Origin: a virus
DNA length: 64,000 nt
Strand: one strand, 5' to 3'
IMG/VR virus record: IMGVR_UViG_3300046514_000653
Span: 1 to 64,000 of that record
Shown: positions 37,097-48,278 of the stretch, in pieces
Numbering within the stretch: position 1 is the first letter of the stretch
Layout: every line of letters begins with the position of its first letter
The notes under the pieces: model-generated
The model's input: the letters and a program-made list of their open reading frames with translations, nothing else
What the model was told of the DNA's origin: nothing
Database searches by the model: none
Position numbers and translations under genes: made by a program

Positions 37097-40000
37097 TTAC
37101 TTCTTACGATTCCCTTTGCTGCCGTGGTTGCCTGTGATTGTAGCGTTGTAGCTGAACACTTCGGCCGGGATGCTGGAAGCGTTGCCCATTCCGTTAGTGA
37201 AACCCGGCCATTTGTAAGCGCCGAGAGACACGTTGGAGAATTCACCGGCCTTGTTCACAAAGTTCGGATCGCAGTAGTAGCCAGCACGTGTCATAGAGCA
37301 GTCGCCCCAGATGGCGCCGTAGTATTTGAGGACGAAAGTTTTGGCTGCATTGCATTGAGAAACACCAAGTAGGCATTGAGCCTTTAAGTAAGCGGCTAGT
37401 CCGGTGGTTCCTTCCGCAGTGTTCACGCGCGATGTGAATTCACCTGTGCCGTCACCGAGGGTGGTAGTCAGCCCCATGAGCCCGCATCCAGGTTGCCCGG
37501 TGCTAGAGAAGGCGTGGATGGTGTCGAAGAGATGAACCGCGTTGGGGATTCCAGGTTCTTCGCAATCACCGGAGACGCGGTTATAGTACATGCCTAAGGT
37601 GCCGGGATTGTTGAGATCGAGTCCGTAGGTAGCCATCCAATTCCCCAACTGACCGCTCATCGTTTGATAAGCAGTGGAGATGGTGGAATTGGAATGCTTG
37701 GATGCCCAACGCATGCCGGAGGCTTTGATACCGGTGAGCATAAAGCCCTGGAGTTCAAAGCCAGAAGTTACATAGCTGACCATGTGATTATCAGTAGTGG
37801 TACCGGCCCTCTGATCCCATGGGCGATTGAGTTTGAGCTGTCCAGAGTTGACGTAGTGGCATGCCCAGAAGGGCTGAAGCATCTTGTTATTCGCGAGCCC
37901 GGCCGCAACCGTCACATCCGGCCAGTCAAGGTTGCTGACTCCGATGGAAGTCATGTAGCCACCACCGAGGCTATTGTCTTCCACCATGAAGTGATAGTCG
38001 CCGGCAGTGAGCCCCGGCCAGAGAGCGGCGAGGGTGACGTTGCCGCCGCTGACAGAGAACTGACGAGTGACGACTAGAGGAGGAGAGACGCTGGTGTCTG
38101 TGATCGTGATGCGAGCACCGGGGTTGACCGTACCGCTGACTACTGTAGCGGCCGTCAAGCCAGGGGTGACGTGGATCAGACCTGTGCCGTCGTCGATACC
38201 AGCGCACATACCGGGCTTCACGATTCCGGTTGTTGGAGCTACGTTGGTAGAACCGTTAACGAGAGTCAGCGGGACAGACGCAGGATCGAAAATCGAAGCA
38301 CCCGCCCACGAGTTTGTATAGACATTAGGAGTGCCGCCAGGGACGAAGCCAGCAGCGTATCCATCTACCGCATTACGACGGCAGGTTTCGTCGCGCGTTT
38401 TCCAAGCCAGCAAACCATTCACCCATGCTGTTTGCCGGGTGGGATCGGTATCTCCCAAAGCAGCCAACGCATTCCAGCCTTGCGGATAGCCCTGGTCGCG
38501 CGGGTCGGCAGTGTTGCAGTTAAGTAGTGCGGTCGCGGCTCCGGATGCTGCGAATGGTTGAATGTCCAACCAAGTAAGTGGGGTGGAGACGTTGAAGATC
38601 TTGTCGATGATACTGCCGACAACGCCACCACCGTAATCCAGCACAAGCCCACCCAGAGCCCCGGAGATCTCCGGATCTCGAATGTAGTTGTCATCGATCT
38701 TGTTGGCGCTAATGACAGCCGGTTTATATCCGCTACGATGTTCGAACCGCCGCTCCTGCAAACCTTCTGCATAGAAGTCCGGACCGAATGGACTCCCAGC
38801 ACTGATCAGATCTTTATAGCTGAATTGTCCAACCAACGGCATCAAGTTCAAAGCAGTGATGTCATGAGTCGCGGCACCAAAAGCCGTCGTCTCGGAAGCG
38901 CAACCGGAGAGTTGAGTGAGAGCCCGATAGATGTTGCTGTTGGACGGAGAGGTGTAATCCAGCGAGGCGTACCGCAGGCTGGTGAATACATAGTTGAAAT
39001 TGCCGGAGTCGAAGTTGGTAGGTAGCGGCCGGCTGATAGTGATGGATAGATTGTCGGCGGCGACTGCGGTTACAAATGCCCAAAATGAGAATGGCATGCC
39101 GGTGTCGTGGGTAGCGAAGACCCGGATGTAGACCTGCGCTTGCATGTTATGCATGCAATCAGTGTTGAGAATGCCTAAAGAAGACGGACCCACCCCGCAC
39201 GAAGGAAATACGTTCTGTGTCCATGAAGCGGAATGCGCGGTCAATGTTGTGGACCCGGCCGTGCCGCTCACTGTGCCTGTGAAATAGAAAGCCTCACCTG
39301 GAGGGCCAGGAGCGCCGTTGGGGCAGAGAGCACGTACAGGGTCTGAGACAAAGAGAGTGCCGCTGCCTTGAATCAACATCTCGCCAACGGTAGTGGTAGA
39401 TGGCCACATAGAAGCGGGAGCTATAGGCTGAGCGTTGAGGTAGAATGCTCCGGCCATGCCGCGCCCGTCGTAGCAGGTAGTGAGATCAGCATCACCAGTT
39501 GTGGCTGTGGTGGAAGCGATACAAACTTGCTCCTGTAATCCAACTCCACCTCCGGTAGAGCCATCATTACCGAGTGAATTCCCGATCAAGATCCAGGTGG
39601 GAGTGCCGGGAAGAGAGAGAAGGCCGTGGAGACATTCAGCGTGATGGATATGGATCGTCGTGTCGGTCGACATGATGTCGGCGGAAAGAGTCGCTTTGGT
39701 CCCGCCTGATACACCCGATCCATAACATCCTTGACCTGGAGCTGGTCCGATGCCAGCGATTGTATAAGTCACCGTACCGGTAGCAGGAGTCAGCCAAGTT
39801 GTCGTAGCAAAGTATGGATTGCCTGAAGGCTGGAGCTGATTGAAATTGCAATCCTGGCCGTTGAGCTGCAGCATGACCGCGGTACAGTGCCGCTCGTCCG
39901 CATACCCGTATGGGTTTTGACCGAAGACGATTTGCGGCGCGTAAACTTGTTCTTCCAAATCAGACTGCACTAAAACACCATCGTTGTTGTAGTCAACGGC

Positions 40001-46436: not shown

Positions 46437-48278
46437 TTAGCTTCCATTCGCAGAACAGTGAACAAAGTAGGTCACATCAAATGTAGATGGTCCGACCGTA
46501 CCGGCCGATGTGTTCAAGAATTCCTGAACAATCGTGACGCCATTGACGGCTGGGGTGAGGGCGAAGGTGCCGATTTTGGGATTGCCGCCTGTAACGTACA
46601 TTGTCGTGTTTGGAGTTGCGACGCAGTTAGGAGGATTGTTGAAAGGGATTGCAAAGATAAAGGCGGCAGAGACAGCACCCGTTGGCATGAGGAGCTGAAA
46701 GCTCTGGTCGGCATTGGTGTTTGAATAAAGGAAATGAAAGCCTGTACTGTTGCCGAGTTGCACAGTGTTAGGGGTACGCATAGAAGCGCCGAGGGCATCG
46801 ACGTAGTATATAGGCGGGGAGCCCCAGCCAAAAGAAGGACCAAAGCCTACTTTGCCGCTGAGAGAATCTAGATAGAGAATATTTAGTTCCGCAGGGCCAG
46901 AGCCTTGTACGTTCACGTCGACATTGGTGTTGTCTGTCGCACGTTTTACGAACTGAACAGAGCAGTTGTTTTCAGTGCCACCGTAAGAAGCGAGATAGGC
47001 TTTAAAATCCCCACCGTTGCCTGTAGTCGTGTTTGGCCAGCCGAAGCCGTACTTGCACTTGCGTTGTGGTAAAATGCCGCCTCCTGCCCACCATCCGGCT
47101 ACACCTGTGATTGGATCGACAGGGAGTGGGACGGAGGCAGAGGTTTGACCGGCTCCACCGGCAAGCATGACACCACCGGTGATGTTGATTTCACCAGGAG
47201 CGTAGAGTTCAGAGTTGGCGTCAGTCCAGACAGAGTAGAGAGGACCGGCCCCTGTAGTAAGTTCGCCGAGGAGTTGAATGGACTGCCGCTCGATGACAGC
47301 ACCGTTAGTGAGTTTTACGGTGTACATCGGGCCTGTCCCGTTGCCATTCACACGAAGGTGGATAGAGTCGCCGAACATCAGGATGCTGTTAGAGCCCGAG
47401 CCGTCAGCCATGAGGCATCCAGTGTTCGGATTGATCAAACTACAGTGCCAGTCCTCAATGGTGTTATACGCAAATGAATTGGTGCCACCTGTGTTGATCA
47501 TGCGCAAGTGTTCAGTGCAGTCGAACGTATCCATAACACGCACGGTTGTCTGTTCAGTGAACTGCGGTGAGGTTGCAGAATTCTCCCAGGTCATGCAAGT
47601 ACTTGTAGATCCGTTGAAACCGCGGATGGTTAGGTTTTCGTACTTCATCCCGAGGCGCGACTCTTGCCAGATACCAGTGGAAGAAGTAGGCGAGCCGTTG
47701 CCGTCCGTGACGCGGCAATTGCGCATGACTCCGGAGATGTAGGGAACGTCAGAGGCAAAGGGAGAAACGTACACAGCTTGCCCGGTCGCGGCCGTGTAGA
47801 GAATTGTTGAGCCCTGGCAGTCGAAGACCACCATGGACGCGGGGATAGTCACGTCACGGCTTGTAGCGACAGCGCAGATCTTCCCTGGAGGAAGCTTGAC
47901 TGTACCTCCTGTCATGGGAAGAGCTGCGAGCGCCGCGGCGATCACTGGACCGTCATTAGTCACCCCATCACATACTGCGTTGACTACAGTAGGATCGCAA
48001 ATGTTGGAGAGTCGAAGATTGTGCGTTCCATCTCCATTGATCGTATTCGGGCTCGTCACGCAGCCGAAGGTATCGGTAGTCCATAAACGATAAGACAGAT
48101 TTGCTCCACCCATAGAATCAGGCGGACGAAAGCCAAAGAAATGCGCCGGATTCTGTTTGTCGCGAAGCTGTATCTCACCGGTTGTAGTCCTGGTGCTATC
48201 TGGAATGATCGTCAAAAGATGCTGCTGCGATTGTCCAAGAAGGACAGAGCTGAGTAAGACAAAGATTGCTGTTTTCAT
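46437..48278 (-). CDS. tailspike-like pectate-lyase-fold protein with signal peptide
   Basis: MKTAIFVLLSSVLLG|Q; AVCDGVTNDGPVIAAAL...GGTVKLPPG. Confidence 0.8.
   Translation of the reverse strand: MKTAIFVLLSSVLLGQSQQHLLTIIPDSTRTTTGEIQLRDKQNPAHFFGFRPPDSMGGANLSYRLWTTDTFGCVTSPNTINGDGTHNLRLSNICDPTVVNAVCDGVTNDGPVIAAALAALPMTGGTVKLPPGKICAVATSRDVTIPASMVVFDCQGSTILYTAATGQAVYVSPFASDVPYISGVMRNCRVTDGNGSPTSSTGIWQESRLGMKYENLTIRGFNGSTSTCMTWENSATSPQFTEQTTVRVMDTFDCTEHLRMINTGGTNSFAYNTIEDWHCSLINPNTGCLMADGSGSNSILMFGDSIHLRVNGNGTGPMYTVKLTNGAVIERQSIQLLGELTTGAGPLYSVWTDANSELYAPGEINITGGVMLAGGAGQTSASVPLPVDPITGVAGWWAGGGILPQRKCKYGFGWPNTTTGNGGDFKAYLASYGGTENNCSVQFVKRATDNTNVDVNVQGSGPAELNILYLDSLSGKVGFGPSFGWGSPPIYYVDALGASMRTPNTVQLGNSTGFHFLYSNTNADQSFQLLMPTGAVSAAFIFAIPFNNPPNCVATPNTTMYVTGGNPKIGTFALTPAVNGVTIVQEFLNTSAGTVGPSTFDVTYFVHCSANGS

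Follow-up and report, generated by a model that had tools for sequence, protein, structure and literature searches.

The tailspikes of podoviruses, among them P22 gp9, Sf6 gp14, and that of cyanophage Pam1 (PDB entries 7eeq, 9vyg, and 4urr), have their docking domain from about residue 12 onward and no leader. Here we analyze a locus of a lambda-like siphovirus from soil at which three consecutive genes, placed right after the tail tip gene, encode proteins of 613, 906, and 2171 amino acids (aa), all with predicted Sec-type signal peptides. The locus lies in a window of 64,000 nucleotides (nt), the first part of the single 76,302-bp record IMGVR_UViG_3300046514_000653, which IMG/VR lists as linear with a CheckV completeness of 100%. 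The podovirus spikes and the present proteins have in common a right-handed beta-helix, found here in the 613-aa protein, a head-binding domain recognizable by sequence in two homologues of the latter (P0008 and P0009), and gene positions in the receptor-binding slot of the tail operon. They differ in three respects: here a Sec leader comes first, the phage's own copy has no recognizable docking domain, and the phage belongs to the siphoviruses.

Lambda provides an example of exported proteins whose genes directly follow a tip gene, the lom and bor morons behind gene J. Morons are small, carry a promoter and a terminator of their own, and often deviate in composition, whereas the genes described here are 1.8-6.5 kb long, do not differ in GC content, and are coupled to the tail operon. 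The C-terminal barrel of the 2171-aa protein resembles the (alpha/alpha)6 glycan enzymes (YteR 1nc5, glycoside hydrolase family [GH] 88 enzymes 4q88 and 3wiw, polysaccharide lyase family [PL] 26 enzyme 5xq3, 9o3q, and 4z4j), with Z scores of 16-17 and a comparable secreted, multidomain architecture with immunoglobulin (Ig)/PKD domains. Unlike them, it carries a large beta-sandwich insertion; its identity to them is 5-10%, and it has no Pfam or NCBIfam match.

Three further systems are relevant. WceF of Pantoea stewartii is an exported, trimeric, tailspike-like exopolysaccharide (EPS) hydrolase with a twin-arginine (Tat) leader that acts on the bacterium's own EPS outside the cytoplasm (PMC7949094). 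It shares with the present proteins an export signal, a tailspike-type beta-helix, and a head-binding-like N-terminal domain as in P0008 and P0009, but it belongs to a bacterial EPS biosynthesis cluster and uses Tat, whereas here Sec-type leaders and many cysteines are found in a phage late operon. All 21 Bdellovibrio MATs have a conserved domain of ~130 aa right past the signal peptide (PMC10769870). The 906-aa protein is like them in layout, with a signal peptide, a conserved N-terminal domain of ~100-130 aa, and a trimeric fiber with swappable tips as the common plan, but MAT fibers are products of chromosomal genes of the predator and are displayed on its own surface. Porphyromonas gingivalis phages have five Q-rule signal-peptide genes in prophages, with unknown functions and no mention of tail parts (PMC10367356); predicted cleavage by signal peptidase I (SPI) exposes Gln there as well, whereas the genes studied here are large fiber-slot genes of a soil siphovirus. 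Phage depolymerases, exported conversion proteins, the Porphyromonas Q-rule genes, WceF, and MAT fibers are thus already published, and we found no description in the literature of Sec leaders on fiber-slot genes of a tailed phage. To these, the present analysis adds a siphovirus of the lambda-like type, a large family of secreted proteins with an (alpha/alpha)6 barrel, and signs that the modules move between phage backbones.

Predicted Sec-type leaders on three consecutive genes after the tail tip gene

The genes, their predicted leaders, and the preceding tip gene are as follows (a slash marks the predicted cleavage site).

46437-48278, minus strand: 613-aa beta-helix protein, predicted to be exported (P0001; open reading frame [ORF], leader, fold, and homologues)
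48234-48278, minus strand: putative signal peptide of the 613-aa protein, aa 1-15, MKTAIFVLLSSVLLG/Q (equivalents in P0006, P0007, P0008, and P0009)
43616-46336, minus strand: 906-aa mosaic fiber-like protein, predicted to be exported (P0002; leader and modules)
46247-46336, minus strand: putative signal peptide of the 906-aa protein, aa 1-30, ...LLSSALHA/Q (MNRRRLGSFVVQLVTSICFCFLLLSSALHA/Q; leaders in homologues too)
37097-43612, minus strand: 2171-aa multidomain protein, predicted to be exported (P0003; leader and domains)
43565-43612, minus strand: putative signal peptide of the 2171-aa protein, aa 1-16, MKQTLLALLFAVSAAA/Q (leader also in first-round homologues)
48279-52580, minus strand: 1433-aa tail tip/hub protein following the tape measure, without signal peptide; the three leader genes are directly next to it

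The start codon of each of the three genes is the first ATG past an in-frame stop, which lies 0 to 6 codons upstream, and each gene is preceded by a Shine-Dalgarno-like motif. We applied a simple rule-based (heuristic) test for n-, h-, and c-regions to the 89 gene proxies of the genome, using as criteria for Sec/SPI leaders a basic n-region, an h-region of ~7-15 residues, small uncharged residues at -1 and -3, and location at the true N terminus. All three proteins have these features: their n-regions are basic (K2 in the 613-aa protein, R3-R5 in the 906-aa protein, and K2 in the 2171-aa protein), their h-regions reach Kyte-Doolittle (KD) values of 2.5-2.9, and their predicted sites follow the small-x-small pattern, LLG/Q, LHA/Q, and AAA/Q, respectively. 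The test flagged 8 of the 89 gene proxies, i.e., the three genes, two fiber-like genes beyond the window, and three small membrane proteins, and no head, portal, terminase, tape measure, tip, or replication protein. Gln occupies the +1 position in all three slot proteins, in six of nine leader-like proteins of the genome, and in most homologues. The first-pass annotation of this DNA had described three consecutive fiber-slot genes with Sec-type N termini and Gln at +1, and this description is borne out, with the ORFs exactly as given, the n/h/c pattern in all three, and Gln at each predicted site.

Leader-like N termini occur elsewhere in the genome as well. A second run of leader genes beyond the window, at G000 71572-75483 (L001 11572-15483) and just upstream of the large terminase gene, encodes proteins of 125, 908, and 268 aa. 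The 125-aa protein has a weak match, below the cut-off, to PF23148 (podophage GP4 fiber-tail adaptor gp77; E = 9e-5), and the 268-aa protein matches phrog_5417, of unknown function. The others are a 143-aa protein (61596-62027) within the head-tail gene run and proteins of 228 aa (29815-30501) and 169 aa (26371-26880) in the early/replication region.

The leaders are conserved in pattern rather than in letters. In the 613-aa family, all four homologues (48-71% identity) have a leader ending before Gln, and the sequences are all different: MKFALLILACLALHA/Q, (internal) MRLALLLAACVSLHA/Q, MIFLALLLAVAGLA/Q, and MRKYLLLFLLALSMFG/Q. The leader of P0008 is without a basic residue. About six of seven homologues of the 906-aa protein have a leader, including all five from P0019 to P0023, four of them before Gln, and P0018, which was called without one, gains MKLLSKILILCSLGVMSYG once the L017 ORF is read from its first start. 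For the 2171-aa protein, 10 of the 11 homologues from the first round of searching have leaders. When its C-terminal 1200 residues were searched exhaustively, a wider family of 242 clusters at 50% identity was obtained; of the 94 representatives that are full length, 79 pass the leader rule, most ending in AG/QS, and several of the others show a ...FAG/QS motif behind an over-long start. Thus, across homologues at 29-71% identity the leader pattern and the Gln are kept while the letters drift, and the recurrence of pattern, cleavage motif, and +1 Gln in nearly all of them argues for selection for export. The homologues include members on contigs of 208 kb (P0008), 185 kb (P0032), 71 kb, and 44 kb; the P0035 homologue had no match in the protein Atlas.

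In an automated annotation of this contig, Val196 is given as the start of the 906-aa gene (P0016, 711 aa). We rejected this start: residues 3-145 share 57% identity with the N terminus of P0023, and the alignments of six other homologues begin at residues 126-147, showing that coding reaches well upstream of Val196.

The genes are tightly joined to the tail genes. The 613-aa gene starts at the base right after the TAG stop of the 1433-aa tip gene, which itself lies past the tape measure, confirming the position right after the tail tip that had been claimed for the three genes. The 2171-aa gene starts 3 nt past the stop of the 906-aa gene. The GC content of the three genes (0.54-0.56, versus a window mean of ~0.53) shows no jump, and promoter- or terminator-like signals around them were not above shuffled controls. 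We read them as late genes that are probably co-expressed with the tail.

Folds and cysteines of the three proteins

The domains recognized in the 613-aa and 2171-aa proteins are listed below.

47124-47981, minus strand: right-handed beta-helix core of the 613-aa protein, ~aa 100-385 (AlphaFold2 [AF2] and Foldseek; PF12708 in homologues)
40973-43564, minus strand: two tandem modules of ~430 aa in the 2171-aa protein (aa 17-440 and 441-880), both with an Ig-like domain at the start (internal BLASTP)
37100-40972, minus strand: ~1290-aa unit of the 2171-aa protein, elsewhere a stand-alone secreted family (242 clusters at 50% identity; homologues and AF2)
40016-40228, minus strand: PKD/Ig-like domain, aa 1129-1199 (PF22352, E = 0.022; family profile against PDB; Foldseek)
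37142-38767, minus strand: (alpha/alpha)6 barrel with beta-sandwich insertion, aa ~1616-2157 (VIA-align)

The AF2 model of the 613-aa protein, built from a five-sequence alignment, has a mean predicted local distance difference test score (pLDDT) of 52, with a core mostly at 60-90, in which the beta-helix is modeled with confidence over residues 100-350. Foldseek matched this core to the secreted AlgE4 and AlgE6 epimerases and to the phiAB6 and Sf6 tailspikes (E = 1e-4 to 1e-3), and PF12708 was found in homologues, verifying at the level of models a tailspike/AlgE-like right-handed beta-helix. No particle-docking domain was detectable at the N terminus of this protein, in which the 85 residues past the leader are unconserved and modeled as disordered. 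Its closest homologue, P0006, is without those 85 residues and runs from the leader straight into the beta-helix. In contrast, P0008 and P0009 have a tailspike head-binding domain directly past the leader (PDB 9vyg and Pam1 7eeq; E = 5e-8). An N-terminal extension of P0007 was considered as a tip-like domain fused to the spike and discarded, as the BLASTP match was not significant (E = 0.15).

The 906-aa protein consists of the leader, an N-terminal domain of ~95 aa, a short collagen-like Gly-X-Y run, a central domain (aa 146-540), and a variable Cys-rich C terminus. The body of P0023, with which it shares its N terminus, is different; its central domain is common to six proteins with other ends, and a motif of ~40 residues (486-528) matches minor tail proteins of Gordonia and Acinetobacter phages. 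Judged from its sequence, the protein is a mosaic fiber. A beta-helix was found neither by Pfam on all seven family members, nor by a PDB profile search, nor by profile-profile comparison with the 613-aa family.

In the 2171-aa protein, the two tandem modules are 28% identical over 392 columns (internal BLASTP, E = 1e-22). The AF2 model of aa 972-2171 (pLDDT of 83.8; predicted template modeling score [pTM] of 0.85) comprises a beta-sandwich, PKD domains, and a twelve-helix barrel. The family profile matches the PKD domains of KIAA0319L in the PDB (E = 3e-11), and Foldseek gave PKD matches also; Foldseek of the large model against the PDB returned Ig/PKD matches only, and apart from the PKD domain the protein has no PDB sequence match. 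VIA-align superimposed the barrel on GH105 YteR (1nc5) with a Z score of 17.1 and a root mean square deviation of 3.9, aligning 317 of 363 residues. Z scores of 15-17 over ~300-340 residues were obtained with cellobiose 2-epimerases (4z4j and 5zig), GH88/GH105 unsaturated uronyl hydrolases, the PL26 lyase 5xq3, the chondroitinase 9o3q, and glycosaminoglycan lyases. A Z score of 17 with near-complete coverage of the target exceeds the chance level for helical models, and we therefore take the C-terminal region of the model to be a twelve-helix (alpha/alpha)6 toroid, the fold being settled and the reaction not. The 2171-aa protein also delineates a large family, so far without annotation, of secreted proteins with such a barrel, comprising 242 clusters at 50% identity. 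Beyond its weak PKD hit, none of the three slot proteins had a match in Pfam, PHROGs, or NCBIfam. The expectation that two of the three proteins are beta-helical was thus verified for the 613-aa protein, the beta-helix of the 906-aa protein is at most a candidate, and Ig/PKD domains and an (alpha/alpha)6 barrel take the place of a beta-helix in the 2171-aa protein. With a beta-helix in one protein and a barrel in another, at least two of the three look like polysaccharide-processing proteins by their modeled folds.

At ~aa 878-885 of the 2171-aa protein (window ~40960-40980), the sequence ...QFGRSIVLSS resembles the ...FAG/QSIVLS cleavage junction of the stand-alone homologues. It looks as though a secreted protein, once complete in itself, had acquired an N-terminal extension at this point.

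The mature proteins have even numbers of cysteines, 14, 22, and 36 in the 613-, 906-, and 2171-aa proteins, respectively. Cys is the best conserved residue of the 613-aa family, with 10 of 12 aligned cysteines invariant versus 28% of all positions. In all three families, neighboring cysteines share conservation values (103/135, 303/307, 505/529, 560/581, 963/991, and 2080/2087), which marks them as probable disulfide partners, and cysteines are gained and lost pairwise across homologues. The claim that the proteins have many Cys pairs suggestive of disulfides thus finds support in even counts, conservation, and pairwise co-occurrence, but not in Cys content, which is not distinctive. We dropped Cys richness as an argument, since the 1.7-2.7% Cys of these proteins is no higher than that of some cytoplasmic proteins of the same phage. 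In leaderless slot proteins of related phages, Cys content is only moderately lower.

The slot in related phages and its genomic context

The phage is a complete lambda-like siphovirus from soil. Its assignment to the long-tailed phages rests on a lambda-type morphogenesis module on the minus strand, with a gpA-type large terminase, a lambda-family portal, an S49 protease, an E-type capsid protein, a 1270-aa tape measure (53137-56949; PF10145 and tape-measure PHROGs), a 151-aa gene, and the 1433-aa protein. The latter begins with MSDTLGRITIP, which is not hydrophobic, and has a weak match to PF09343/DUF2460 (distal-tail-like) at its N terminus. Homologues of the tip protein are found on nine related contigs at 32-50% identity. 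Its residues 1-1313 are conserved in these relatives (L002-L010) and the last ~120 are variable; in L009 and L010, the homologue is 2514 aa long, as though a fiber had been fused on.

Sequence near-identical to the contig is present in several metagenome runs from soil and rhizosphere, and there is no RNA run among the sequencing runs listed as holding it. The phage is without a close relative among cultured phages; its best terminase matches are ~37% identical, and tblastn against cultured phages gave no match for the tip, the 613-aa protein, or the C-terminal unit of the 2171-aa protein. For the same three sequences, no kinship was seen with the Tunturi phages, cultured phages of Acidobacteriota, whose description does not mention signal peptides or virion proteomics. 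Scans of species genomes with P0008 and with the 613-aa family yielded no relative, nor did scans of viral contigs with the 613-aa family and with P0007.

The gene next to the tip is not always a leader gene. In L002 to L005 it is without a leader, and one of the four encodes an 827-aa pectate-lyase spike that matches tail-fiber PHROGs. In L007 and L008, the same position is taken by an 861-aa protein with the leader ...LLVATAGWG/Q. The slot is thus used for leader-bearing and leaderless proteins alike. L017, a 65.6-kb phage with a different backbone, has homologues of the 906-aa and 2171-aa proteins together, in a run of four leader genes within the structural module, and on five further viral contigs with different backbones a 2171-type gene stands in similar leader-gene runs beside tail or internal-virion-like genes, one of these runs including a Tat leader. 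Within this phage group, clusters of late genes with leaders thus form a module that recurs and is mobile. No paralogy was found among the leader-bearing proteins of the phage or between them and the slot proteins of relatives. A gene in L021 (2082-3395), just upstream of its 2171-type gene, has a Tat leader, …ITRRGFIRTAG…KAMA, instead of a Sec leader.

As to the host, Shine-Dalgarno-like motifs precede 36% of the gene proxies versus 10% in the background, a frequency that fits Bacteroidota poorly. If the leaders work, the +1 Gln would give a sequence marker of host type. Gln at this position is the rule in Bacteroidota and in some other lineages of the Fibrobacteres-Chlorobi-Bacteroidetes (FCB) group, e.g., Ignavibacterium, in a study that did not analyze Acidobacteriota (PMC5837995).

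A palindrome, CTAGTWACTAG, found genome-wide, has 10 exact copies in the window versus 0 expected. Two of them, 58 bp apart, flank the start codon of the 906-aa gene.

46290-46300, no strand: CTAGTWACTAG copy within the leader-coding part of the 906-aa gene, encoding LVTS
46348-46358, no strand: second CTAGTWACTAG copy, 12 nt upstream of the 906-aa start, overlapping its ribosome-binding site

A further copy at 29884-29894 again encodes LVTS, in the leader of the 228-aa gene at 29815-30501.

Possible fates of the three proteins

From the leaders and the cysteine pattern, we consider it likely that the three proteins are exported by Sec and folded oxidatively; their folding very probably takes place outside the cytoplasm, the compartment in which virions are assembled. 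The first-pass annotation had proposed as much, and its proposal gains from the retention of leaders and +1 Gln at 29-71% identity and from the conservation of cysteines in pairs, with export and disulfides still a matter of prediction. For its further suggestion, incorporation into the virion at or after lysis, there is neither proof nor disproof, and the alternative of secretion or display is at least as likely. The fate that we tentatively favor, although we would put it slightly below an even chance, is that of enzymes and binders matured in the periplasm and freed at lysis. The three proteins would be made late with the tail and exported by the host Sec translocon; SPI would cut them, leaving an N-terminal Gln, and they would fold with disulfide bonds in the periplasm until their release at lysis. 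Outside, they would cleave or bind a putative substrate in the host capsule or EPS, so that progeny escape the debris and reach neighboring cells, and attachment to the particle would not be required. The lack of a docking domain in P0006, the lack of a detectable one in the 613-aa protein, and the barrel and beta-helix folds speak for this fate. Sec delivers only to the periplasm, and searches of every C terminus with Pfam/NCBIfam detected no type IX secretion system (T9SS) C-terminal domain, PEP-CTERM, or other outer-membrane sorting signal, although divergent signals are possible; release would thus hinge on lysis.

Several considerations weigh against free enzymes. Apart from disulfides, the reason for exporting proteins that lysis would release anyway is not evident, export is a prediction from the sequence, and for non-structural enzymes ~11 kb out of a genome of 76 kb would be a large outlay. 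Moreover, the leaderless proteins in the same slot of four relatives, one of them the tail-fiber-like pectate-lyase spike, argue that the slot is structural, P0008 and P0009 retain a virion head-binding domain past the leader, and a conserved N-terminal domain with a swapped body, as in the 906-aa protein, is the usual signature of an anchored fiber. These last three observations also favor a rival explanation, in which at least the 906-aa fiber and the 613-aa spike are virion appendages that mature in the periplasm and dock on the finished tail only once holin and endolysin have joined the compartments, or after release into the lysate. In a comparable manner, spikeless particles accept P22 tailspikes in vitro. 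The genes stand in the receptor-binding slot, with translational linkage to the tip gene; in P0008 and P0009, the head-binding domain (9vyg and 7eeq; E = 5e-8) is placed between a leader and the same beta-helix; aa 3-145 of the 906-aa protein form an N-terminal module with 57% identity to the one that P0023 carries on another body, and residues 486-528 of the 906-aa protein match minor tail proteins of cultured phages. The second cassette (71572-75483) fits as well, with leaders on its 908-aa and 125-aa proteins and the weak gp77-adaptor match of the latter. However, the phage's own three proteins are without a detectable docking domain, P0006 is without any N-terminal domain, and the 2171-aa protein resembles a secreted multidomain glycan enzyme. 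A head-binding domain in homologues is no proof of docking, as WceF, an exported bacterial enzyme, also keeps a head-binding-like domain without a virion (PMC7949094). Bdellovibrio MATs, moreover, have the order of leader, conserved N-terminal domain, and fiber in proteins of a cell surface (PMC10769870). The 1433-aa tip could itself be the receptor-binding protein, so that the phage need not carry these proteins on the particle, and we found no published case for any tailed phage. We therefore regard docking as a minority possibility. In its full form, with spikes and fibers of some phages of soil diderms being exported by Sec, trimmed to pyroglutamate, locked by disulfides, and clipped to tails at lysis, it appears rather unlikely; if true, it would extend a two-compartment assembly route from short-tailed to long-tailed phages.

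There are two other explanations. The proteins might remodel the envelope of the living infected or lysogenic cell, by trimming its capsule, EPS, or lipopolysaccharide (LPS) or by display as surface fibers, and thereby block superinfection, prevent re-adsorption of progeny, or alter host adhesion, in the manner of lom/bor-type conversion in lambda or of Bdellovibrio MAT fibers. The MAT-like layout of the 906-aa protein (leader, conserved N-terminal domain, fiber, and variable tip) is consistent with this idea, the two palindromes bracketing its start could give the gene pair its own control, and the Q-rule leader genes of Porphyromonas prophages have been read likewise (PMC10367356). However, the genes are not moron-like, given the lack of a composition jump, of promoter or terminator signals above chance, and of separation from the tip gene, to which the 613-aa gene is coupled. 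They total ~11 kb, no outer-membrane anchor or sorting signal was found in their products, and any lysogeny is hypothetical; both the remodeling itself and the purposes just named seem improbable to us. Finally, the hydrophobic N termini might not be working signals at all, being uncleaved tethers, assembly helices, or products of misassigned starts on proteins that assemble in the cytoplasm. The automated start at Val196 and the database call of P0018, also past the leader, point that way, as do the P0008 leader without a basic residue and the reliance of the export call on a rule-based heuristic. Nevertheless, residues 3-145 are conserved in P0023 and those from 126-147 onward in six further homologues, leader pattern, cleavage motif, and Gln recur in nearly all homologues while the sequence drifts, and the Cys pairing fits an oxidizing compartment, making nonfunctional leaders quite improbable.

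If the leaders work, ~11 kb of the late genes of a tailed phage would be made for the periplasm, and together with the other leader-bearing genes (nine leader-like proteins in total) about a fifth of the coding capacity would be exported. The annotation and expression of receptor-binding and depolymerase genes of soil phages would change, and recombinant production would need an oxidizing compartment and the mature N terminus. The choice between free egress or foraging enzymes and virion parts added at lysis is a question beyond textbook assembly schemes.

At the end of the late operon, 33953-34726 encodes a 257-aa class 3 lipase-like protein (PF01764, E = 9e-12), which may be a lysis or envelope-active enzyme. 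Near it, 35305-35589 encodes a small membrane protein that could be a holin.

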